DNA of 33,657 nt, from IMG/VR virus record IMGVR_UViG_2939152649_000001; one strand, 5' to 3'. Shown here piece after piece: positions 3,003-33,657 of the stretch. Origin of the DNA: a virus (lineage: Duplodnaviria > Heunggongvirae > Uroviricota > Caudoviricetes). A program made the translations under genes and the position numbers. The notes under the pieces are model-generated. The model did no database searches. It was not told where the DNA came from and saw only the letters and a list, made by a program, of their open reading frames with translations. How positions within the stretch are numbered: position 1 is the stretch's first letter; the number at the start of each line of letters is the position of its first letter.

Positions 3003-4028
3003 TTAGCGATGCCAGTTGAGGTTATGAAGTGGATTTTTGGTAACGGCATCTTCCAGATGATCCGGTGCAAAATGGGCATAAATCATGGTCATTTTAATAT
3101 CAGCGTGCCCTAAAATATCCCTCAATACTAAAATGTTTCCGCCGTTCATCATAAAGTGGCTGGCGAAAGTGTGGCGCAGAACGTGGGTACATTGACCTTC
3201 AGGTAGTTCAATTCCAGCTCGTTTTACCGCACGCTCAAAAGCCTTTCGGCATGGTGTGAATAACTTTCCTCTGTTTTTGGGTAATTCTTCATACAGTTCC
3301 TGAGAAATAGGAACAGTTCGGTTTTTCTTTCCTTTTGTTTTGGTATAGGTAATTCGATACTTTGATATCTGGTTACCTTGCAGGTTTTCGGCTTCGCTCC
3401 ATCTTGCCCCGGTTGCCAGACAAATCTTGGCAATCATTAGCAGACTGGGACTTTGAGATTCAGCACAAGCGTCAAGCAGGCGTTTGATTTCATCAGCAGC
3501 AAGGAACGCCAGTTCACCCTCTGCAATTTTGAAAGTTGGCAGACCGGCGAGAGGGTTGGGTGCAGACCAATGTCCCAGCTTTTTCAGTGTGCCAAAAACT
3601 GAGGATAGGTTACGTTGTTCAAGGTTCACCGTTCTGGGCTTAACTGGTGACATGAGCACACCATCTTCGTTTTTGACCTCACCTTTTAATCTGGCTTCCC
3701 GGTATTTTGTGAAATCACCTGCTGTCAATTCAGAAGCGATGGGATCGCCAAGCCCATTACAAATGATTTTTAACTTAGCCATTAATCGCTTAGGGTCAGC
3801 GAGTGTCTGACCGTACAGGGAATACCATTGCTCAATCACTTCTGACAGTTGTCGCCGATCTTCCTTTTCTCCCAGCCAAGGTTTCTTGTTTACCTCGTCC
3901 ATGGTGAAATTCTCAAACGCAATGGCTTCGCCTTTCGTCGCAAATTGTTTGCGTACGCGTTTGCCATCTCGCCCGTTTGGGTAGCATTCACATAACCACT
4001 TTCCGTTCGGCTGTTTTCTGATGGTCAT
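3003..4028 (-). CDS. int: Phage integrase (tyrosine recombinase), P2/186 type
   Basis: 341-aa ORF next to attL; C-terminal catalytic region ...ATGARWSE...HVLRHTFASHFMMNGGNILVLRDILGHADIKMTMIYAHF carries the R..H-x-x-R..Y signature of tyrosine recombinases. Confidence 0.93.
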   Translation of the reverse strand: MTIRKQPNGKWLCECYPNGRDGKRVRKQFATKGEAIAFENFTMDEVNKKPWLGEKEDRRQLSEVIEQWYSLYGQTLADPKRLMAKLKIICNGLGDPIASELTAGDFTKYREARLKGEVKNEDGVLMSPVKPRTVNLEQRNLSSVFGTLKKLGHWSAPNPLAGLPTFKIAEGELAFLAADEIKRLLDACAESQSPSLLMIAKICLATGARWSEAENLQGNQISKYRITYTKTKGKKNRTVPISQELYEELPKNRGKLFTPCRKAFERAVKRAGIELPEGQCTHVLRHTFASHFMMNGGNILVLRDILGHADIKMTMIYAHFAPDHLEDAVTKNPLHNLNWHR

Positions 4029-4029
4029 A

Positions 4030-4662
4030 TCAAAGGCTCTTAATGATTTTCAGTGCGCGGCCTATTACCTTAATGTCATCCAGTTCGCACTCAAACGATG
4101 AATCATCCTGATGCACTACTAATCTGTTTCCCGGGAGTCGTGTCAATTTTACAATGCTTTTTATCCCGTCGATGTCCACTAACCACGTACCATTTACTGG
4201 TGGTGTTTGGTTGCGATCTATTAAATAAGAATCACCAGAAGTAGTCACCAGCAGCAGGTTGCTTGAGTCTGAGGGGAGTATGCTGCTATCAATGATTGCT
4301 TTTCCAGCATCGACCAATAAACCACCGTTGAGAGTTGCCTTTTCAATTTCAGGAGATACAAGCTCAGAAAGAGGTTTAACCTTGCTGGGGTTCACGGAAT
4401 TGATATTTTTTTTAGGGTCAATGTTTGAACCTGGCTCGCCCTGTCCGGTGGTTAGCCATAGTAAAGAAACTCCTGTTTCCAAGGCGCACTGAATCACCCA
4501 TTCTGCGGGAAAGCTATCTCTTAAGTATCTGTTTGCCATAGTGCTTTTTGATGCACCTAAGTGATCGCAAAGTTGCTGTCTGGACTTGAAATCATAGGCT
4601 GCCATTAGTCTATGGATAGCCTCTCTTCCCCCTGTATTCTCGCCAGCTTTTACCTGTATCAT
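4030..4662 (-). CDS. cI: Immunity repressor CI, 186 type
   Basis: 210-aa ORF directly upstream of int, divergent from the early operon; N-terminal HTH region with ...ANRYLR...CALETGVSLLWLTTGQG resembles 186-family CI; no obvious Ser/Lys autopeptidase dyad. Confidence 0.8.
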   Translation of the reverse strand: MIQVKAGENTGGREAIHRLMAAYDFKSRQQLCDHLGASKSTMANRYLRDSFPAEWVIQCALETGVSLLWLTTGQGEPGSNIDPKKNINSVNPSKVKPLSELVSPEIEKATLNGGLLVDAGKAIIDSSILPSDSSNLLLVTTSGDSYLIDRNQTPPVNGTWLVDIDGIKSIVKLTRLPGNRLVVHQDDSSFECELDDIKVIGRALKIIKSL

Positions 4663-10757: not shown

Positions 10758-10767
10758 GGGGGGGGGG
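10758..10767. repeat. G10 homopolymeric tract
   Basis: Ten consecutive G between the candidate cos site and the 3' end of Q. Confidence 0.9.
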
Positions 10768-20253: not shown

Positions 20254-20609
20254 CGCTTTATAGCGGGATGAACAATACCAGCGGCAAAGTCATTACTGAT
20301 ATTGATCATCTGCGCCAGTCGGTGCGGGACATTCTGCTGACACCGCAGGGTAGCCGTATTGCCCGCCGGGAATATGGTTCCCTCCTGTCGGTTTTAATAG
20401 ATCAGCCACAAAATCCGGCATTACGCCTGCAGGTCATGTCGGCAGTGTATGTGGCGCTGAGTCGCTGGGAGCCACGGCTGACGCTGGATTCCATCACCAT
20501 CAACAGCAACTTTGACGGTTCTATGGTGGTGGAGCTGACCGGGCGGCGGAATAACGGTGTGCCTGTGTCCCTTTCCGTATCAACAGGAGCAGAGAATGGC
20601 AGTGATTGA
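20250..20609 (+). CDS. W: Baseplate wedge protein W (gp25-like)
   Basis: 119-aa ORF overlapping the V stop; P2 gpW size and position. Confidence 0.9.
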   Translation: MTLYSGMNNTSGKVITDIDHLRQSVRDILLTPQGSRIARREYGSLLSVLIDQPQNPALRLQVMSAVYVALSRWEPRLTLDSITINSNFDGSMVVELTGRRNNGVPVSLSVSTGAENGSD

Positions 20610-21504
20610 CCTTTCGCAGTTGCCTGCACCGCAGATTGTGGATATGCCGGACTTTGAGACGCTGCTTGCCGAACGCAAGGCAGAATTTGTGGCGCTTCAT
20701 CCGAAAGATGAGCAGGAAGCCGTGATCCGAACGTTGGAACTGGAATCTGAACCCGTCACTAAATTGTTGCAGGAGAACGCTTACCGTGAGTTGCTTCTGC
20801 GCCAGCGCATTAACGAAGCCGCGCAGGCGGTGATGGTGGCTTACGCGATGGGCGGCGATCTTGACCAGCTCGCAGCCAACTACAACGTGACACGCCTGAC
20901 GGTGACGCCTGCTGATGATGATGCTGTGCCGCCCGTTGCAGCTGTGATGGAAAGCGATGAAGCGTTACGCCTGCGTGTGCCTGCAGCCTTTGAAGGGCTT
21001 TCTGTTGCGGGGCCAACTGCAGCTTATGAATTTCATGCCCGAAGCGCCGACGGTAGGGTGGCGGATGCCAGTGCAACCAGCCCGGCACCTGCAGAGGTGG
21101 TGCTGACTGTCCTTAGCCGCGAAGGCGATGGAACTGCAGAAAAAGACCTGCTGGACGTGGTGGAAAAAGCTCTGAACAGTGAGAACGTCCGCCCGGTGGC
21201 TGACCGTCTGACGGTTCGCAGCGCAGAAATCATCCCGTATCGCGTGGAAGCCACCATTTTTCTCTATCCGGGACCGGAAGCAGAGCCGGTAATGGCAGCG
21301 GCAAAAGCCAGCCTGCAGAAGTACATCGCCAGTCAGACGCGTCTTGGTCGGGATATTCGCCGTAGCGCCATCTTTGCCGCCCTGCATGTTGAGGGTGTGC
21401 AGCGTGTGGAGCTGGCTTCTCCTCTGGCGGATGTGGTCCTGAACAAAACACAGGCGGCATCATGTACGCAGTGGAGCGTAACCAACGGAGGAACGGATGA
21501 ATAG
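20596..21504 (+). CDS. J: Baseplate assembly protein J
   Basis: 302-aa ORF from the Met of MAVIDLSQLPAP..., start overlapping the end of W. Confidence 0.9.
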   Translation: MAVIDLSQLPAPQIVDMPDFETLLAERKAEFVALHPKDEQEAVIRTLELESEPVTKLLQENAYRELLLRQRINEAAQAVMVAYAMGGDLDQLAANYNVTRLTVTPADDDAVPPVAAVMESDEALRLRVPAAFEGLSVAGPTAAYEFHARSADGRVADASATSPAPAEVVLTVLSREGDGTAEKDLLDVVEKALNSENVRPVADRLTVRSAEIIPYRVEATIFLYPGPEAEPVMAAAKASLQKYIASQTRLGRDIRRSAIFAALHVEGVQRVELASPLADVVLNKTQAASCTQWSVTNGGTDE

Positions 21505-22102
21505 TCTGCTGCCACCGGGTTCAACTTCACTGGAGCGCCGACTGGCGCAAACCTGTAGCGGGATTTCTGATCTGCAGGTGCCGCTGCGTGACTTGTGGAA
21601 TCCGGCTACCTGTCCGGTCAGCTTCCTGCCTTATCTCGCCTGGGCGTTCTCTGTGGATCGCTGGGACGAGGGCTGGACAGAAAGCGTCAAACGCCAGGTA
21701 GTGAAGGATGCTTTTTATATTCATCAGCATAAAGGAACCACCAGTGCCGTGCGGCGGGTGGTGGAACCGTTCGGATTCCTGATCCGCATTATTGAGTGGT
21801 GGCAGACCGGAGAGGCTCCGGGCACGTTTCGCCTGGATATCGGCGTGCAGGACCAGGGCATCACTGAAGATACCTATCTGGAACTTGAGCGACTGATAAG
21901 CGATGCCAAACCATGTAGCCGCCACATGATCGGCATGTCCATCAATCTGCAGACCAGCGGCCCGCATTGGGTGGGAGCCGCCAGCTATCTTGGCGAAGAA
22001 ATCACGATCTATCCGTATATCAACGAAACAATTATTTCTGGCGGCACCGCGCATGAAGGCGGGGCGGTCCATGTTATTGACACAATGAGAGTGAATCCAT
22101 GA
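21497..22102 (+). CDS. I: Baseplate/tail-fibre attachment protein I
   Basis: 201-aa ORF between J and H, overlapping both. Confidence 0.85.
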   Translation: MNSLLPPGSTSLERRLAQTCSGISDLQVPLRDLWNPATCPVSFLPYLAWAFSVDRWDEGWTESVKRQVVKDAFYIHQHKGTTSAVRRVVEPFGFLIRIIEWWQTGEAPGTFRLDIGVQDQGITEDTYLELERLISDAKPCSRHMIGMSINLQTSGPHWVGAASYLGEEITIYPYINETIISGGTAHEGGAVHVIDTMRVNP

Positions 22103-23496
22103 GCACAAAATTTTATACCCTGCTGACGGATATTGGCGCGGCGAAACTTGCCAGCGCCGCCGCGCTCGGTGTGCCGCTAAAAATTACCCATATGGCGGTG
22201 GGCGATGGTGGCGGAACATTGCCGACGCCGGACGCAAAGCAGAGTGCACTGGTAAATGAGAAACGTCGGGCTGCGCTGAATATGCTCTATATCGACCCAC
22301 AGAACAGCAGCCAGATTATTGCTGAACAGGTGATCCCTGAAAATGAGGGTGGTTGGTGGATACGTGAAGTGGGTCTGTTTGATGAGTCCGGGGCATTGAT
22401 TGCCGTAGGCAACTGCCCGGAAAGCTATAAGCCGCAACTGGCTGAAGGCAGCGGGCGCACCCAGACCGTGCGCATGGTGCTGATTACCAGCAGCACGGAC
22501 AATATCACCCTGAAAATCGACCCTGCCGTCGTGCTGGCAACCCGCAAGTATGTGGATGACAAGGTACTGGAGCTGAAGGTGTTCGTGGATGATAAGATGG
22601 CAAAACATCTTGCCGCACCGGACCCGCATTCACAGTATGCACCCAAAGAAAGCCCGACATTGACCGGAACACCCAAAGCGCCAACGCCAGCGGAGGGGAA
22701 TAACACCACGCAGATTGCGACCACCGCGTTTGTTCAGGCGGCACTGATGGCCCTTATTAATGGTGCGCCAGCCACACTGGATACGCTGAAAGAAATTGCC
22801 GCTGCCATTAATAATGACCCGAAATTCAGTACCACCATTAACAATGCGCTGGCACTGAAAGCGTCGCTGTCAAGTCCGGCACTCACCGGAACGCCAACAG
22901 CCCCCACTGCCGCACAGTCGGTTAACAATACACAGATTGCCACCACGGCTTTTGTGAAATCGGCAATTGCGGCAATGGTGGGGTCTGCACCTGCTGCACT
23001 GGATACACTGAACGAACTGGCTGCGGCGCTGGGGAATGACCCGAACTTTGCCACGACAATGCTTAATGCGCTGGCAGGTAAACAACCGCTGGACAATACG
23101 CTGACTAATTTGAGTGGAAAGGATGTAGCTGGTCTTCTCGCATACCTTGGTTTGGGAGAGGGAGCAAAATTAGGCGCAGCGGTGTGTGTGACCGGCTCTA
23201 CAGGCTATATGACTATCCCGGCAATGGTCGCCGGGAAAGAACGGGTGATCATATTGCAGTGGTTTGGTGCTGCTACAACTGATTATGTGACACCAGTAAC
23301 TGCGAATTTCCCTATTGCATTCCCAAATGAGTGCATGATTCCGTTATTTAGTGATGTATCAACTGGGGCAGTTGATTTGAGTTCTACAGCCGCATATAGC
23401 TTAGCGGTGGGCCGATCATACTATACGACGGTAACAAGAACTCAGATTACATGTGCTGGCTACGGTGGCTTTAGAGTTTTCGCGATTGGATGGTGA
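22099..23496 (+). CDS. H: Tail fibre protein H; C-terminal ~115 codons lie inside the invertible cassette
   Basis: 465-aa ORF with conserved N-terminal baseplate-binding part ([24 protein letters not shown]...), tandem 74-aa fibre repeats and a variable C-terminus. Confidence 0.9.
22651..23094 (+). repeat. Tandem duplication (2 x 222 bp, encoding 74 aa each) inside H
   Basis: [59 protein letters not shown]... is followed by [59 protein letters not shown]... Confidence 0.7.
23136..23159. promoter_or_regulatory. hix/gix-like recombination site (left) inside H
   Basis: TCTCGCATACC-TT-GGTTTGGGAGA: imperfect dyad around a central TT, resembling crossover sites of Hin/Gin/Cin/Pin invertases (AAACC-NN-GGTTT core); inverted copy at 24682..24705. 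Confidence 0.6.
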
Positions 23497-23501
23497 TTAA
23501 T

Positions 23502-23921
23502 ATGTTTTATTCTGCAAAAGAAAATGCGTTCTACGCTGATGAGCTAAAAAGTATTTATGAAAATGCAGGTAGCTGGCCTGACGATGCCGTTGAAGTAGAC
23601 TATTCCGTATTCGTTGAGTTTGCCGGAGAATCACCTAACGGAAAATTACGCGCTCCTAATTCTGATGGTTTACCTGAATGGATAGATATTCCCGAACCAA
23701 CTGAAGAGGAAATTATTGCGTTGGCAGAAGCCGAAAAATCGCGACTGCGTGCTTCAGCTGACTCTGAAATAGAATGGCGGCAGGACGCCGTTGATGCGGG
23801 GATCGCGACGGAAGAAGAAACTGTTTCATTAGCCGAATGGAAAAAATACCGGGTGCTGCTGATGCGAGTTGATACAGCAGACCCGGACTGGCCTACTCCT
23901 CCGGCGACTCAGGCCAGTTGA
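23502..23921 (+). CDS. Tail fibre assembly protein (chaperone) for the expressed fibre variant
   Basis: [28 protein letters not shown]... with C-terminal DWPTPP motif; immediately follows H (alternative in-frame ATG at 23490). Confidence 0.8.
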
Positions 23922-24324
23922 TATCTGGTGCGCTGGATATGTCCACAGATTCCAGCGCATCGAGATAATCCAGCCACTCGTTATACTGGGCCTTCTCGTC
24001 GTCTGTAAGTCGCCCCAGCGCAGCTTTACCCGGCCACTGCTTGCTGTTTATATACTCATTAGCCTGATCGATACGATACTGTTTTTCAGCTTCAGCTGCT
24101 GCGATTTCCTCCTCATGGCTTAAAGGTGGAATGTCTACCCATGCCGGCATTCCATCCTCAGTAGCTCCACGAGTTTTACCCTCTGGTGGCATCCCCGAAT
24201 ATTCAGTGAATGTCTCATCTGAGACGGCTATGAGATCGTCAGGCCAGTTTCTACTCGCTTCATAAACATCTCTGAGCTCATCAGGGTAGAAAGCGTTATT
24301 TAATGCTGAATAAAAATAAGCCAT
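23893..24324 (-). CDS. Tail fibre assembly protein, alternative copy in inverted orientation
   Basis: [30 protein letters not shown]... is a paralogue of the plus-strand chaperone; the two converge and overlap by 29 bp, as U and U' do in Mu-type G segments. Confidence 0.8.
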
Positions 24325-24327
24325 TTA

Positions 24328-24692
24328 TTAATACCCCACAGCAAAATAGTTAAACCCGCCAGCGCCGATGGATGATTCAGCGTTGGTTCCTGTCTGATAA
24401 GCGCGTAGCTGGAAATTAGTTCTCGTAAAATTCTGGGCGGTTAACGCAAAACCTTGACCTGTACCCCCAACACTCTGGTCTGTTGCAACAACACATAGCG
24501 CCCTGGTTGGAAACGCAATCGGGAATGATACTGTTTCTGGGGATGTTTTCGTTTTGGCTATTGCCCATTGAAGAATTAACCCGCCTGGCAGGTATTGATA
24601 CCCCGAATCGGCTCGCTGATTACCAAATGAAGACATGTCCGGAATCTGTCCGGAACCAGTGCCAACATTTTTTTTGCCGCATCTCCTAAACC
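24328..24692 (-). other. Silent alternative tail-fibre C-terminal cassette, promoterless, minus strand
   Basis: Minus-strand translation ...LILQWAIAKTKTSPETVSFPIAFPTRAL...GGFNYFAVGY parallels the C-terminus of H (...[28 protein letters not shown]...[10 protein letters not shown]); the six-frame ORF 24328..24765 extends spuriously upstream of the recombination site. Confidence 0.7.
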
Positions 24693-24705
24693 AACGTTTA
24701 TAAAA
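24682..24705. promoter_or_regulatory. hix/gix-like recombination site (right), inverted relative to the site in H
   Basis: Reverse complement TTTTATAAACG-TT-GGTTTAGGAGA matches the left site in the core (TT-GGTTT-GGAGA); the two delimit a ~1.55 kb invertible segment. Confidence 0.6.
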
Positions 24706-24746
24706 ATGCAGAGATTTTTCCTGCAAGCGGACAAATACCGTTATTT

Positions 24747-24764
24747 TGTGTGAATAACGGTACA
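24747..24764. promoter_or_regulatory. Candidate late-promoter activator site upstream of FI
   Basis: TGTGTGAATAACGGTACA (TGT-N12-ACA), near-identical in its ends to the O-promoter site, about 77-94 bp upstream of the FI start. Confidence 0.5.
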
Positions 24765-24840
24765 ACTGCGCTTAGCTGTTTGTCAGGCACAATCACTTCA
24801 ACATAGGGCGAAGCCTAATCCAATCAGGAGGTTCGCCACT

Positions 24841-26013
24841 ATGGCTCAGGATTACCACCACGGGGTGCGCGTTGTTGAAGTTAACGAAGGCACCCGATCC
24901 ATTACCACGGTGAGCACCGCCATCGTGGGTATGGTCTGCACGGGCGATGATGCCGATGCAAAAATGTTTCCTCTTAATAAACCCGTGCTGATCACTGATG
25001 TGCTGACTGCCAGCGGTAAAGCGGGTGAGTCCGGCACGCTGGCCCGTTCGCTGGATGCCATCGCTGACCAGGCAAAACCCGTGACCGTTGTTGTGCGTGT
25101 GCCGCAGGGTGAAACGGAAGAAGAAACCACGACCAATATCATCGGCGCAGTGACTGCTGAAGGTAAAAAAACAGGCATGAAAGCCCTGTTATCTGCCCAG
25201 ACACAGCTCGGCGTTAAACCGCGCATTCTCGGCGTGCCAGGTCACGATAACAAAGCCGTTGCTACTGAGTTGCTGAGTGTGGCGCAAAGCCTGCGTGGGT
25301 TTGCTTACCTGTCAGCGTATGGCTGCAAGACGGTGCAGGAGGCGATCACTTACCGTGAAAACTTCAGCCAGCGCGAAGGAATGCTGATCTGGCCCGACTT
25401 TACTGGCTGGGACACGGTGCTGAATGCCGAAGCAACGGCATATGCCACCGCCCGTGCGCTTGGTCTGCGTGCCAAAATTGATGAGCAGACCGGATGGCAC
25501 AAAAGCCTGTCCAACGTGGGCGTGAACGGTGTCACCGGAGTTTCTGCAGATGTGTTCTGGGATCTGCAGGACCCGGCAACCGATGCAGGTCTGCTGAACC
25601 AGAACGACGTCACCACGCTTGTGCGTAAAGACGGTTTCCGCTTCTGGGGTTCCCGCTGCCTGAGTGATGACCCGCTCTTTGCCTTCGAAAACTACACCCG
25701 CACGGCGCAGGTGCTGACGGACACAATGGCAGAAGCGCACATGTGGGCAGTGGACAAACCGCTGAACCCGTCGCTGGCCCGCGACATTATCGAAGGTATC
25801 CGCGCCAAAATGCGCAGCCTGGTCAGTCAGGGGTATCTCATTGGTGGTGATTGCTGGCTGGATGAGTCGGTGAACGATAAAGACACGCTGAAAGCCGGGA
25901 AGCTCACCATTGACTACGACTACACGCCAGTGCCGCCACTTGAAAACCTGATGCTGCGTCAGCGCATCACCGATCAGTACCTGGTGAATTTTGCCAGCCA
26001 GGTCAGCGCGTAA
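24841..26013 (+). CDS. FI: Contractile tail sheath protein
   Basis: 390-aa ORF with strong similarity to P2 gpFI as recalled ([19 protein letters not shown]..., ...[21 protein letters not shown]..., ...[13 protein letters not shown]...). Confidence 0.93.
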
Positions 26014-26022
26014 GGGGACAAC

Positions 26023-26538
26023 ATGGCTTTACCACGCAAATTAAAACATCTGAACCTGTTTAACGACGGGAACAACTGGCAGGGGATCGTTGAGTCGCTG
26101 ACACTGCCGAAATTCACCCGCAAATATGAGAAGTATCGCGGCGGCGGAATGCCGGGTGCAGTGGATGTGGATCTGGGACTTGATGACAGTGCTCTGGACA
26201 CAGAATTTTCCATTGGTGGTACTGAACTGCTGCTGTTTAAGCAGATGGGCAAAGCCACTGTGGATGGCATCCAGTTGCGCTTTACCGGCTCTATCCAGCG
26301 TGACGATACCGGAGAAGTGCAGGCCGTAGAGCTTGTAGTGCGTGGGCGTCACAAAGAAGTGGATTCCGGTGAGTGGAAGACGGGCGAAAGCAACACCACC
26401 AAAGTGACCAGCACTAACAGCTACGCGAAGCTGACAATCAATGGTGAGGTGCTCTATGAAGTGGACCTCATCAACATGGTGGAAATCGTGGACGGTGTGG
26501 ACCTGATGGAAGCACACCGTAACGCCCTCGGCCTCTGA
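26023..26538 (+). CDS. FII: Tail tube protein
   Basis: 171-aa ORF immediately after the sheath gene; P2 gpFII position and size. Confidence 0.9.
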   Translation: MALPRKLKHLNLFNDGNNWQGIVESLTLPKFTRKYEKYRGGGMPGAVDVDLGLDDSALDTEFSIGGTELLLFKQMGKATVDGIQLRFTGSIQRDDTGEVQAVELVVRGRHKEVDSGEWKTGESNTTKVTSTNSYAKLTINGEVLYEVDLINMVEIVDGVDLMEAHRNALGL

Positions 26539-26592
26539 TGTATCTGAACGGCGCGGAATACCGCGCCAGAACCTAATTTACAGGACAGCAAA

Positions 26593-26895
26593 ATGAGCGA
26601 TAAGCAGACTGAAAAGACCATTCAACTGGATACCCCTATCAAGCGTGGTAAAACAGAAATCACCGAAATTGTGCTGCGCAAACCGCATTCCGGTGCGCTG
26701 CGCGGTACACGCCTGCAGGCGATTATGGATATGGATGTGAACGCGATGATGACCGTGATCCCCCGCATCTCCAGCCCGGCACTGACTGCACAGGAAATTG
26801 CAGAGATGGACCCGGCAGATCTCACTGCCATGTCGGTTGAGGTTGTCACTTTTTTGTTGAAGAAGTCGGTGCTTGCCGGTTTACCGACAGCCTGA
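26593..26895 (+). CDS. E: Tail assembly chaperone E
   Basis: 100-aa ORF upstream of the tape-measure gene containing a T TTT TTG slippery heptamer. Confidence 0.85.
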   Translation: MSDKQTEKTIQLDTPIKRGKTEITEIVLRKPHSGALRGTRLQAIMDMDVNAMMTVIPRISSPALTAQEIAEMDPADLTAMSVEVVTFLLKKSVLAGLPTA

Positions 26896-27029
26896 CGGTT
26901 GACGATCTGGTGGCAGATATCGCCACCATTTTTCACTGGCCGCCATCCGTTACTGACGTTATGCCGCTGACCGAAGTGCTGGAATGGCGGTATAAAGCGA
27001 TTCAGAGAAGCGGGGCCAACGATGAGTGA
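26593..27029 (+). CDS. Tail assembly chaperone E+E' (extended product by programmed -1 frameshift at 26850..26856)
   Basis: T-TTT-TTG lies in the zero frame (codons ACT TTT TTG); the -1 frame stays open for ~57 codons to a TGA at 27027..27029 overlapping the T start, the conserved chaperone arrangement. Confidence 0.7.
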
Positions 27030-30000
27030 TAACAACCTGCGTCTGCAGGTCATTCTTAATGCGGTTGACAAGCTCACCCGCCCATTTCGATCTGCGCAGG
27101 CCAGTTCAAGAGAACTGGCTGCTGCTGTCAAAAAATCCCGCGATGCAATAAAGCAGCTTGATCAGGCCGGGAGCAGTCTGGACAGCTTCCGAAAGCTGCA
27201 GGCAGAAAATCAGAAATTAGGCGACAGGCTGAACTATGCCCGCCAGCGTGCAAATTTGCTCAGTCAGGAACTGGGAGCGATGGGGCCGCCTTCGCAACGT
27301 CAGGTTGTTGCTCTGGGCCGTCAACGGCTGGCTGTTCAGCGCCTGGAAGAACGCCAGAAAAAGCTGCAGCAGCAGACGGCGCTTGTGCGTGCTGAACTGT
27401 ACCGGGCGGGAATTTCTGCGAAAGACGATGCGGGAGCAACTGCCCGTTTAGCCCGTGAAACATCACGTTATAACCAGGAACTTTCGAAACAGGAGGCGCG
27501 GCTGAAGCGACTGGGGGAAGCTCAGCGCAGGATGAATGCAGCGCGTGCCAGTTATGCCAGCTCGCTGGAGGTGCGTGATCGTATTGCAGGTGCCGGAGCC
27601 ACCACCACGGCTGCAGGGCTGGCAATGGGTGCGCCAGTGATGGCGGCAGTAAAAAGCTATACCAGCATGGAAGATGCCATGAAAGGTGTGGCAAAGCAGG
27701 TCAATGGTCTGCGTGACGATAATGGCAACCGCACTGCACGTTTTTATCAAATGCAGGATGCCATCAAGGCTGCCAGCGAACAGTTGCCGATGGAAAACGG
27801 TGCGGTGGACTTCGCTGCACTGGTTGAAGGTGGTGCGCGCATGAACGTCGCAAACCCTGACGACAGCTGGGAAGATCAGAAACGTGACCTGCTGGCCTTC
27901 GCCAGTACGGCAGCAAAGGCGGCAACAGCCTTTGAGCTGCCAGCGGATGAACTGTCAGAAAGTCTGGGGAAAATCGCCCAGCTCTACAAAATCCCCACCC
28001 GCAATATTGAACAGCTCGGTGATGCGCTGAACTATCTGGATGATAACGCCATGTCGAAAGGGGCAGACATCATTGATGTGATGCAACGTCTGGGCGGTGT
28101 GGCTGATCGTCTGGATTATCGTAAAGCGGCGGCGCTGGGTTCCACCTTCCTGACACTGGGCGCTGCGCCAGAGGTTGCAGCCAGTGCAGCAAACGCGATG
28201 GTGCGTGAATTGTCCATTGCCACCATGCAAAGCAAGAGTTTCTTTGAAGGGATGAATCTGCTGAAACTCAATCCTGAAGTGATTGAAAAGCAGATGACGA
28301 AGGATGCGATGGGAACCATCCAGCGCGTGCTGGAGAAGGTAAACACGCTGCCGCAGGATAAGCGTCTGTCTGCCATGACCATGTTGTTTGGTAAAGAGTT
28401 TGGCGATGACGCGGCGAAACTGGCAAACAACCTGCCGGAACTGCAGCGCCAGCTAAAACTGACAGCGGGCAATGATGCGCTCGGCTCCATGCAGAAAGAA
28501 TCCGACATCAACAAAGACTCACTTTCTGCGCAGTGGTTGCTGGTCAAAACCGGAGCGCAGAACACCTTCAGCAGCCTGGGCGAAACGCTGCGCCAGCCGC
28601 TGATGGATATTCTGTACACGGTGAAAAGCGTCACGGGGGCGTTGCGTCGCTGGGTGGAAGCTAACCCGGAACTGACAGGCACACTGATGAAAGCGTCGGC
28701 CGTTGTGGCTGCGGTTACCGTCGGCCTCGGCACCTTAGCGGTGGCGCTGGCTGCAGTGCTGGGGCCGCTGGCAGTGATCCGTCTGGGATTCTCTGTGCTG
28801 GGTATCAAAACGTTACCTTCCGTTACGGCAGCAGTAACACGAACCAGCAGCGCGTTGTCCTGGCTGGCTGGCGCTCCACTGGCACTGCTGCGACGCGGGC
28901 TTGCTTCATCGGGCAATGCTGCGGGTTTACTTACTGCGCCGTTGTCATCTTTGCGCCGTACGGCATCACTGACGGGAAATGTCCTGAAAACTGTAGCAGG
29001 TGCGCCAGTTGCACTGTTGCGGTCTGGATTATCCGGTTTACGTGCGGTTGCTGTGATGTTTATGAATCCACTGGCGGTACTGCGCGGTGGACTGACCGCC
29101 GCAGGCGCGGTGCTGCGAGTGCTGGCATCTGGTCCGCTGGCGATGCTGCGCGTTGCTCTGTATGCCGTATCTGGTCTGTTAGGTGCTCTGCTCAGTCCGA
29201 TAGGTCTTGTGGTTACTGCACTGGCGGGCGTGGCGCTGGTTGTCTGGAAATACTGGCAACCCATCACCGCATTTCTCGGTGGCGTGGTGGAAGGATTCAA
29301 AGCGGCGGCAGGTCCCGTCAGTGCTGCATTCGAACCACTTAAGCCTGTGTTTCAGTGGATTGGCGACAAAGTACAGGCGCTGTGGGGCTGGTTTACTGAT
29401 CTGCTTACGCCCGTTAAGTCGACCTCTGCCGAACTGCAGAGTGCAGCGGCAATGGGGCGACGATTCGGGGAGGCACTGGCGGAAGGGCTGAATATGGTCA
29501 TGCATCCGCTGGACTCCCTGAAATCCGGCGTTTCCTGGTTGCTGGAGAAGCTCGGCATTGTCAGTAAAGAGGCCGCAAAGGCAAAACTGCCGGAAAGCGT
29601 GACGCGTCAGCAACCTGCGACGGTGAATGCAGACGGTAAAGTGATGATGCCATCGGGTGGTTTTCCATCATGGGGATATGGCTTTGCGGGAATGTATGAC
29701 AGCGGCGGGTATATCCCGCGCGGGCAGTTTGGCATCGTCGGTGAAAACGGGCCGGAAATTGTTAACGGCCCGGCAAATGTGACCAGCCGGAGAAATACAG
29801 CTGCACTGGCTGCCGTTGTTGCCGGAATGATGGGCGTTGCTGCCGCGCCTGCAGAGCTTCCACCGTTGCACCCTTTGGCACTTCCAGCGAAAGGCGGCGA
29901 AGCGATGGTGAGTCGTGCAGCCACTGTGCCGCCCGTTCAACGGATTGAGGCACCGATGCAGATCATCATTCAGACGCAGCCAGGACAAAGTGCGCAGGAT

Positions 30001-31972: not shown

Positions 31973-31996
31973 AACCTGCTACGGCAGGTTTTTATT
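31973..31996. terminator. Bidirectional rho-independent terminator between ogr and the convergent cargo gene
   Basis: AACCTGC-TACG-GCAGGTT hairpin (7-bp stem, 4-nt loop) followed by TTTTTATT on the plus strand and a CT-rich tract on the minus strand. Confidence 0.6.
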
Positions 31997-32474
31997 CATC
32001 TGGGATCTCACCCGTTTCAAGAAAATGTATAAAGCCAGGCTCATCTATGATGATTGTGCCTTTCATCCTGGCTGCCGATACTTTTGATGGGCCTGCATTG
32101 TAACCGCAACAGAGCATCTGAAGGCTTTGGGTTACAGAGGTTCTTACCGTTAATCCTTGTTCATTCGCCTTATCAACCAATCTTTCTTTATCTGCTTTCT
32201 TAAATCCGGTGAAACACACATCGAATGTATTTTTTTTCGGACCAGACTGCTTAGTGAGATGTGAGTAGTTTTCGGGGAGGAATGATGTGCATTCCTGAAT
32301 GGCTTGTTCTGGTGAATCGTACTGTTTAAGAATGCGGTCTTTTCGGAAGGTTTTTATTCGATCGGTGTTCTTACAAATGCCCTGTATATGATTTTCGCTA
32401 TAACTGATGCTCTGTATAGAGTGAACACCGATACGACCATTTGCATTGATGTAAACAAAGTGAAGTTCTTCCAT
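31992..32474 (-). CDS. Cargo protein of unknown function: N-terminal WYL-like region and C-terminal BRCT-like region
   Basis: 160-aa ORF with AGAGG ribosome-binding site. Residues ~5-47 (FVYINANGRIGVHSIQSISYSENHIQGICKNTDRIKTFRKDRI) fit the WYL pattern, including the R-x-F-R-x-D-R-I hallmark; residues ~83-150 (TFDVCFTGFKKADKERLVDKANEQGLTVRTSVTQS...GTIIIDEPGFIHFL) fit a BRCT-like pattern as in NAD-ligase C-termini. Domain calls by eye, not profile search. Confidence 0.8.
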   Translation of the reverse strand: MEELHFVYINANGRIGVHSIQSISYSENHIQGICKNTDRIKTFRKDRILKQYDSPEQAIQECTSFLPENYSHLTKQSGPKKNTFDVCFTGFKKADKERLVDKANEQGLTVRTSVTQSLQMLCCGYNAGPSKVSAARMKGTIIIDEPGFIHFLETGEIPDE

Positions 32475-32500
32475 GTCAAACCTCTTTGCATGATTTCAAG

Positions 32501-32539
32501 ATGGCGACAGGCAAGATGGACGCAAAAGTCTGTCGCCAT
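32501..32539. promoter_or_regulatory. Perfect 10-bp inverted repeat with 19-bp spacer in the leader of the cargo gene (candidate operator or RNA structure)
   Basis: ATGGCGACAG (32501-32510) and CTGTCGCCAT (32530-32539); lies 27 bp upstream of the cargo gene start codon on the minus strand. Confidence 0.5.
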
Positions 32540-32554
32540 TTTGCCGCCACTACC

Positions 32555-32589
32555 TAAGAAAAAGGGGCTACGCTTTCACGTAACCCCTT
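32555..32589 (-). terminator. Rho-independent terminator of ssrA, supplied by the prophage side of the att site
   Basis: On the ssrA strand: AAGGGGUUACG-UGAAAG-CGUAGCCCCUU (11-bp stem including one G-U pair) followed by UUUUUCUU, 9 nt past the mature CCA end. Confidence 0.7.
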
Positions 32590-32593
32590 GATT

Positions 32594-32642
32594 TATTTGG
32601 TGGAGCTGGCGGGAGTTGAACCCGCGTCCGAAATTCCTACAT
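32594..32642. repeat. 49-bp att core at the 3' end of ssrA (attR), direct repeat of 2837..2885
   Basis: Exact identity to the left copy. Confidence 0.9.
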
Positions 32643-32960
32643 CCTCGGTACTACATGCTTAGTCAGTCTTTACATTCGCTTGCCAGCTGCGGACGGACAC
32701 GCCACTAACAAACTAGCCTGATTAAGTTTTAACGCTTCAACCCCAGGCAGGACTTCCACGCGATCTCTTTTGGGTTTGACCTCTCTTGATCCCCGTCCTA
32801 AGAGCGGAGGCTAGGGAGAGAGGGCTCTAAGCAGGTTATTAAGCTGCTAAAGCGTAGTTTTCGTCGTTTGCGACTATTTTTTGCGGCTTTTTACGAGGCC
32901 AACCGCCCCTCGGCATGCACCTTGGGTTTCGCAAATCCCGTCGAATCCAGAATCAGCCCC
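32598..32960 (-). ncRNA. ssrA: tmRNA (transfer-messenger RNA), 363 nt
   Basis: Reverse complement reads GGGGCTGATTCTGGATTCGACGGGATTTGCGAAACCC ... GCAAACGACGAAAACTACGCTTTAGCAGCTTAA (ANDENYALAA tag) ... GGGTTCAACTCCCGCCAGCTCCACCA, matching E. coli tmRNA as recalled. Confidence 0.97.
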
Positions 32961-33174
32961 AATGTGTAAAGGTAAGTATACCAGATTTATGAGCGCCATG
33001 ACCAGCCTCAATGGCGTTATCGTTAAAGATTTAGCACCCATGTAGCCTGATTTTTATTCGATTAAGCAATGGGATGGCAACATTTGTGTCGGATGTGATA
33101 GCCAATAAGATGTTCATTCGCGCCGCCGGAGAGGGAGGCGCGGTGAGGAACTGGTCAATAATTGGAGTGCAGGT

Positions 33175-33657
33175 TTAACGGTGGGCGTTTTTCATGATAC
33201 GCGCTTTATCCACCTGCCATTCGCGCTCTTTGATATCTGAACGTTTATCGTGCTGTTTCTTACCTTTGGCGACGCCGATTTTCACTTTGCACCAGGCATT
33301 TTTCCAGTACAGGGAGAGCGCCACTACGGTATAGCCTTCTCGATTGACGCGACCGTACAATGAGTCCAGTTCGCGCTGGTTGAGAAGTAACTTGCGGGTA
33401 CGGGTAGGATCGCACACCACATGCGTGGAGGCCACTGCCATTGGCGTGATGTTTGCGCCAAACAGGAACGCTTCTCCGTCACGCAGAAGGACATAGCTGT
33501 CGCTGATATTGGCTTTTCCTGCGCGCAGGGATTTAACTTCCCAGCCTTGCAGGGCAAGTCCCGCTTCGAACTCTTCTTCGATAAAGTATTCGTGACGGGC
33601 GCGCTTGTTAAGCGCGATGGTCGCTGAACCAGGTTTATGTGCTTTTTTCTTCGTCAT
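33175..33657 (-). CDS. smpB: SsrA-binding protein SmpB
   Basis: 160-aa translation [72 protein letters not shown]... matches E. coli SmpB as recalled; start codon is the last triplet of the window. Confidence 0.97.

Follow-up and report, generated by a model that had tools for sequence, protein, structure and literature searches.

The 33,657-nt segment of the Escherichia coli chromosome analyzed here (the window) most likely carries an invertible tail-fibre module of the Gin/Pin/Hin type that has decayed in two independent ways, and the A-tract beside its right crossover site is probably a mutational hot spot under weak selection. A 627-bp deletion at a 3-bp microhomology removed the serine invertase gene, probably locking the segment with the fibre at 22099-23496 expressed. 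The silent cassette also carries a heritable -1 frameshift in an A9 run and, even if flipped, would yield a fibre ending 35 codons after GLG without its Gp53-like domain. The A-run itself would be an accidental hot spot, whose length likely varies because selection on silent cassettes is weak in lysogens. With its invertase deleted and its reading frame shifted, the cassette thus appears to be disabled twice, the invertase deletion probably leaving it permanently unexpressible.

The prophage in the window is P2/186-like, with head and tail genes of the P2 type (Table 1). Copies of IS30 and IS3-family elements abut its integrase end (1-2391), and its other end abuts a BRCT-domain ORF, ssrA and smpB (31992-33657). 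This second junction places the prophage at the ssrA site, unlike four relatives found in complete genomes, in which the prophage adjoins ybjL and which show 174 mismatches to the window over 16.4 kb (1% divergence). Compared with these relatives, the region 20300-27482 contains a single difference, at position 25540; the cluster of SNPs located right beside it in the tape-measure gene (27483-28803) points to a recombination mosaic. A sister prophage from E. coli CH468 (L011, Pakistan), which has the same A8 tract and invertase-deleted module, carries an ISEcp1-blaCTX-M-15 unit inserted in its baseplate V/W region (L011 1695-4969).

The overall organization of an invertible switch is readily recognizable in the window. 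A constant fibre N-terminus is followed by two opposed Gp53-like_C cassettes and two Caudo_TAP chaperone genes in the layout H, U, U', S', and two inverted sites of about 26 bp share an identical 2-bp core at which natural recombinants join. In H, the constant part is joined at ...AYLGLG to the C-terminal cassette currently expressed; an identical H copy in L003 is annotated 'phage tail protein'. The motif TTGGTTTRGGAGA is present in two exact inverted copies (23147-23159 on the plus strand, 24682-24694 on the minus strand), one inside each of the 26-bp sites hixL and hixR, and a search with the same motif revealed no third hix-like site in the window that would allow another in-frame crossover. 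The junctions of the natural recombinants L001 and L002 fall at hixL, whose central TT occupies 23147-8. The product of U' is WP_060615093.1, a protein shared with L002, which expresses the cassette, and a promoter scan found no sigma-70-like promoter reading into the silent cassette of the window. Once its frame is restored, this cassette contains a Gp53-like_C domain (PF21882, E 6.5e-19) and is 31% identical to the C-terminus of the expressed H (E 1e-9), which bears out the homology with the H C-terminus that an earlier, sequence-only reading of this DNA had seen in the offset frame.

Table 1. Positions of the fibre module and of selected prophage and host features in the window.
Feature	Position	Strand	Basis or remark
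Integrase gene	3003-4028	-	Prophage gene
186-type CI repressor gene	4030-4662	-	Prophage gene
Tail-fibre gene H, 465 aa	22099-23496	+	ORF; Phage_tail_fib 1-150, Gp53-like_C 384-465 (Pfam)
Left crossover site, hixL-like, TTCTCGCATACC TT GGTTTGGGAGAG	23135-23160		Inside H; inverted repeat, exact motif match
Tail-fibre assembly chaperone gene (U/Tfa), expressed cassette	23490-23921	+	Pfam Caudo_TAP, E 1e-33
Tail-fibre assembly chaperone gene (U'), silent cassette	23893-24324	-	Intact; Pfam Caudo_TAP, E 1.9e-38
Silent alternative fibre C-terminal cassette (S'-like)	24328-24692 (right end approximate)	-	Promoterless, no proper start, frameshifted relative to the crossover
T8 (A8 in the cassette sense)	24668-24675		-1 relative to the A9 tract of in-frame alleles
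Right crossover site, hixR-like, ATCTCCTAAACC AA CGTTTATAAAAA	24681-24706		Centre AA 24693-4; inverted repeat, exact motif match
Deletion junction, GAT microhomology	24713-24715		627 bp missing, including the whole serine-invertase gene; blastn against L004 and L006
TGT-N12-ACA motif, P2 late-promoter type	24747-24764	+	Pattern match; upstream of the sheath gene
Tail sheath gene FI	24841-26013	+	ORF; sheath annotation in L003; right boundary of the module
tmRNA gene ssrA	32598-32960		smpB at the right end of the window

The T8 run was confirmed at the positions reported earlier, 18 nt from the hixR crossover centre. Its length is not unusual in itself, since the window contains four homopolymer runs of at least 8 nt, the longest of which is a G10 (10758-10767) in non-coding cargo DNA that separates the replication module from the portal gene. 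The tract matters because it falls precisely in the interval from the crossover to the homologous frame, and because A9 alleles occur naturally. Inversion in silico at the central dinucleotide produces, with A8, a fibre that reads ...AYLGLGDAAKKMLALVPDRF... and stops 35 codons after GLG, close to the 40 or so codons anticipated by the sequence-only reading; such a fibre would end before the receptor-binding Gp53-like domain. With one additional A, the same inversion gives the anticipated in-frame fusion, an open 471-aa fibre (...GLGDAAKKNVGTGSGQIPDMSSFGNQ...FNYFAVGY). The two cassettes of the window are not both in frame across the crossover, whereas A9 alleles are. The 132-aa 'gp53-like domain-containing protein' WP_165843458.1 predicted by RefSeq/PGAP corresponds to 24328-24726 on the minus strand; its first ~17 residues (MQEKSLHFYKRWFRRCG) derive from junction and hix DNA translated in a frame other than the true one, and the annotation is an artefact or relic of the frameshift.

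Natural A9 alleles confirm the in-frame arrangement. The complete E. coli genomes CUWW10 (L001) and 02B21CPO003B (L002) carry this module inverted, on a different P2-like backbone; H and the cassette are joined there at the crossover used in the simulation, the run is A9, and the product is an intact 397-aa fibre (...AYLGLGDAAKKNVGTGSGQIPDM...). Silent copies with A9 include L024, L007-L009 (IMG/VR and metagenomes) and L061-L064, which lie on contigs of one draft genome, one ENA metagenome and two Logan assemblies. A9 is also present in many database proteins, among them the in-frame P0003, P0024, P0026 and P0028, which are fusions to other fibre N-termini. Given that A9 alleles are in frame and encode intact fibres, A9 is the functional state and A8 its -1 allele. 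The window cassette differs from the A9 allele of L007 by only a 1-nt deletion and one substitution and its U' gene is intact, from which we infer that the frameshift is recent and a single event. These comparisons support the earlier suggestion of a decayed alternative receptor-binding domain. They also speak against an offset shared by relatives that recombine elsewhere: the relatives revealed no different in-frame crossover position, and natural recombinants use the same one. An exact-pattern scan of the GTDB species representatives returned 0 matches, and a looser pattern applied to IMG/VR returned 32 loci, of which L007 was the sole true match. In sister cassettes, AAKRNVGTG is encoded as GCA AAA CGG AAT, without any run (GCAAAACGGAATGTG in L005, GCAAAACGGGGGGTG in L004), and in functional alleles having the run the corresponding codons are GCA AAA AAA AAT (AKKN). 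The A9 run hence looks like a by-product of an R-to-K codon change and not like a conserved feature.

The second lesion becomes apparent upon comparison with L004 and L006, two close relatives sharing the same backbone. In both, the interval from the right site to the sheath gene is occupied by a gene for a 189-aa serine recombinase, giving the layout H-U-U'-S'-invertase-FI. By blastn, the window matches these loci up to 24715 and again from 24713, revealing a clean 627-bp deletion with GAT microhomology; the deleted stretch corresponds to 4045-4671 of L004 and 3374-4000 of L006. The serine DNA invertase gene expected next to the segment is thus missing, and tblastn with three invertases found no invertase- or resolvase-like sequence in the 33.6-kb window. 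Only 5 of the 657 complete E. coli genomes having sheath-upstream sequence contain the deletion junction. The 627-bp deletion is found with two different cassette sets, that of the window and that of L005. Independent lesions of the invertase gene exist elsewhere: it is truncated after 67 residues in L008 (12127-12369) and L009 and frameshifted in L061/L062 (2433-2971), the tract being A9 in all four. The tail operon of the window is probably unaffected, a TGT-N12-ACA motif surviving to the right of the junction; we presume that this motif acts as a promoter by analogy with the Ogr-dependent promoters of P2.

Hin-type invertases require a Fis-bound enhancer located about 100 bp from one hix site (PMC3798978), and a Fis-dependent enhancer was probably lost along with the 627 bp. 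An invertase encoded elsewhere in the host genome may act in trans, yet with the enhancer DNA inside the deletion even such an enzyme should work poorly. In drafts of the window lineage, contigs of 100-500 kb assemble straight through the module, and no record of a protein from the inverted orientation of the window backbone was found. Invertase-bearing backbones occur in both orientations (L022 versus L025; L026-L028 versus L029; L001 and L002 versus L007-L009). Collectively, these observations fit a locked segment. The sequence-only reading had assumed a working inversion switch; because the invertase gene is deleted, the window offers no switch on which a second layer could be built.

Tract length is polymorphic in nature: most alleles have A9, two or more cassette alleles have A8 (KTK and TKTIK, the latter in L068, L069 and P0005), and A10 occurs once, in P0012, whose MRQKKNVGTG requires ten A residues. 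Length and invertase status vary independently. L024 has A9 together with the same invertase deletion as the window; L005 has the same deletion, no A-run at the site and a different, intact silent cassette; L020 and L021 have A8 and no invertase found adjoining the cassette; L008 and L009 (invertase truncated) and L061 and L062 (invertase frameshifted) keep A9. Eight copies in Citrobacter farmeri (L022, L023, L025-L029) have A8 beside intact invertases, although A8 calls in the C. farmeri and JAIOO* assemblies are uncertain, those of C. farmeri because Mb-sized contigs may derive from long reads only. Two of the C. farmeri A8 copies are in the expressed orientation and encode truncated fibres of 312 aa and 201 aa; by exact look-up, 3 contigs were found to encode the truncated C. 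farmeri fibre. Among 5.8 billion cluster representatives, the out-of-frame tail peptide had 0 matches, a weak result since truncated fibres cluster under other representatives. We rejected a strict rule by which A8 would arise only after loss of the invertase, as A8 is present beside intact invertases and on stand-alone segment contigs and A9 is present in the deleted backbone of L024. Considering A8 beside intact invertases, the A9 of L024 and the run-less L005, relaxed selection after locking is not the sole possible route to A8.

Such polymorphism is what gives substance to a different interpretation, in which the A-run is a selected contingency tract whose slipped-strand mispairing would turn one arm of the inversion switch on and off at random, as a second layer of variation. 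Natural assemblies show lengths of 8, 9 and 10, which change the frame on near-identical cassettes as in a contingency locus. The presence of A8 on at least two different alleles implies recurrent change, some A8 copies adjoin intact invertases or lie in the expressed orientation, and the invertase-deleted lineage contains both A8 and A9. Phage-encoded hypermutable polyG tracts offer a precedent, as indicated by the entry for that work in the references of PMC10877375 (Sorensen, 2021). In the window, however, the cassette has no invertase and is not expressible at any tract length. The tract is not conserved either, given the AAA CGG AAT of sister cassettes, and repeat conservation in homologues, typical of contingency loci, is lacking. 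A9 is the length in almost every distinct allele and in every clearly functional fusion, and the invertase-deleted lineage is almost entirely A8 (37 contigs versus one A9 locus), which suggests rare and not rapid switching. A 9-nt A-run also stands at the low end of the range for contingency tracts. We consider a selected tract unlikely; for invertase-bearing copies, an adaptive switch of this kind is possible. Of the earlier proposal, the polymorphism stands, and no sign of selection or regulation accompanies it. A wider version, in which the A8/A9/A10 run would form a second stochastic layer on a widely exchanged enterobacterial fibre module, with A8 possibly rescued leakily by -1 frameshifting or transcriptional slippage, likewise seems improbable to us. 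An accidental hot spot within a locked module remains our preferred reading.

The sequence-only reading had also raised the possibility of a homopolymer sequencing error, with a true tract of A9. Homopolymers are prone to error, and other A8 copies (L020, L022-L029) lie on Mb-sized contigs that may be based on long reads only. Nevertheless, the A8-specific 132-aa ORF spanning the deletion junction of the window is present on 37 contigs, many of which have the size of typical short-read drafts. Four complete genomes from Vietnam, India (two) and Pakistan agree on A8 together with the junction, and the window, with its prophage at ssrA, represents a further A8 assembly. A8 is also found on a Logan contig from SRA run SRR33118277 and on five stand-alone 1.5-kb draft contigs, such segment contigs beginning and ending exactly at the hix cores. 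Moreover, assemblies of the same kind report A9 at other loci (L024, L061-L064), and therefore the callers do resolve nine A residues. The breadth of these occurrences argues for A8 as a real heritable allele, and sequencing or assembly error, now very improbable, is effectively refuted.

Hardly credible, finally, is a functional A8 rescued by recoding, through -1 ribosomal frameshifting on A_AAA_AAA or one-A transcriptional slippage that would restore the A9 protein AAKK-NVGTG: after inversion, the H frame GCA AAA AAA ATG does hold an X_XXY_YYZ heptamer in the zero frame, a -1 slip, as derived from the sequence, would read AAT GTT GGC like the A9 product, and an AGGAG lies 7 nt upstream of the tract, but this AGGAG belongs to the conserved hix half-site, the downstream 81 nt form no stimulatory structure (fold z = -0.83, with 41 of 200 shuffles folding at least as well), A9 is the majority state and the out-of-frame A8 arrangement a minority one that is not conserved, and in the window the cassette is not joined to H, which makes recoding irrelevant there. 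Fibres are thought to be trimers, hence frameshifting at the percent level would leave very few complete ones. Overall, we found no evidence for recoding or for an adaptive slipped-strand switch.

Beyond the window, the 1.55-kb module, with near-identical chaperones and cassettes, occurs on at least five tail backbones, including P2-like, Mu-like (Phage_Mu_Gp48) and Phage_Wedge1 types. The loci concerned (L020-L029, L061-L064, P0003, P0020 and P0024) belong to E. coli, E. albertii and C. farmeri; the module is always joined at the GLG/hix boundary, and some genomes have two copies. Variants of the chaperone gene were also encountered. In P0015 (163 aa, EPO4457723.1), the first 42 residues of the chaperone (...DYSVFV) run straight into the cassette sequence GLGDAAKKNVGTG..., a chimera which suggests that recombination went astray at a hix-like pseudo-site in tfa. 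In L018, a GCTGAA (Ala-Glu) tandem repeat of the U' gene is expanded by 30 bp at ~3600-3630, and the 153-aa product of the gene has no Pfam match on record.

The locked module has practical consequences, as one invariable receptor specificity should be assumed for this prophage, both in annotation and in host-range prediction. Fibre inversion modules decay repeatedly: the window lineage has lost its invertase by deletion, L008 and L009 have a truncated one, L061 and L062 have a frameshifted one, and in L020 and L021 none was found beside the cassette. The A-run is a recurrent failure point within them, of relevance to the inference of tropism from prophage sequences and to the engineering of such modules. 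The feature described here is ordinary prophage decay of a known kind at a mutation-prone spot.

The closest functional models are the G segment of Mu with Gin (S-U, S'-U') and the C segment of P1 with Cin. Shared with the window are a constant N-terminus, a 26-bp site, two opposed cassettes, one chaperone gene per cassette and inverted sites with a 2-bp core. In Mu and P1, the invertase gene adjoins the segment and both cassettes are in frame. In contrast, the invertase of the window is deleted, one cassette is frameshifted and the backbone is P2/186-like; lacking both the adjacent invertase and a second in-frame cassette, the window is to be seen as a decayed relic and not as a working member of the family. 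The invertible segments of P2-like prophages, found in enteropathogenic E. coli (EPEC) E2348/69 and as Fin in Salmonella Fels-2, are nearer still, being carried by the same type of phage and placed between H/G and the sheath gene. Related loci occur in both orientations and those of E2348/69 and Fels-2 are active in culture (flipping in the prophages of E2348/69 is described in PMC4272514), whereas the copy of the window has no enzyme gene and is found in one orientation only. A further fibre inversion module carried by a prophage is the P segment of e14 with Pin, in E. coli K-12; pinE is retained there and inversion continues, whereas the prophage of the window, otherwise complete-looking, lost its invertase. 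As for the tract, the polyG runs of Campylobacter phages (Sorensen et al., 2021) are also homopolymers in receptor-binding genes whose isolate-variable length sets the frame, but the run of the window is a short A-run that is not conserved in sister cassettes.
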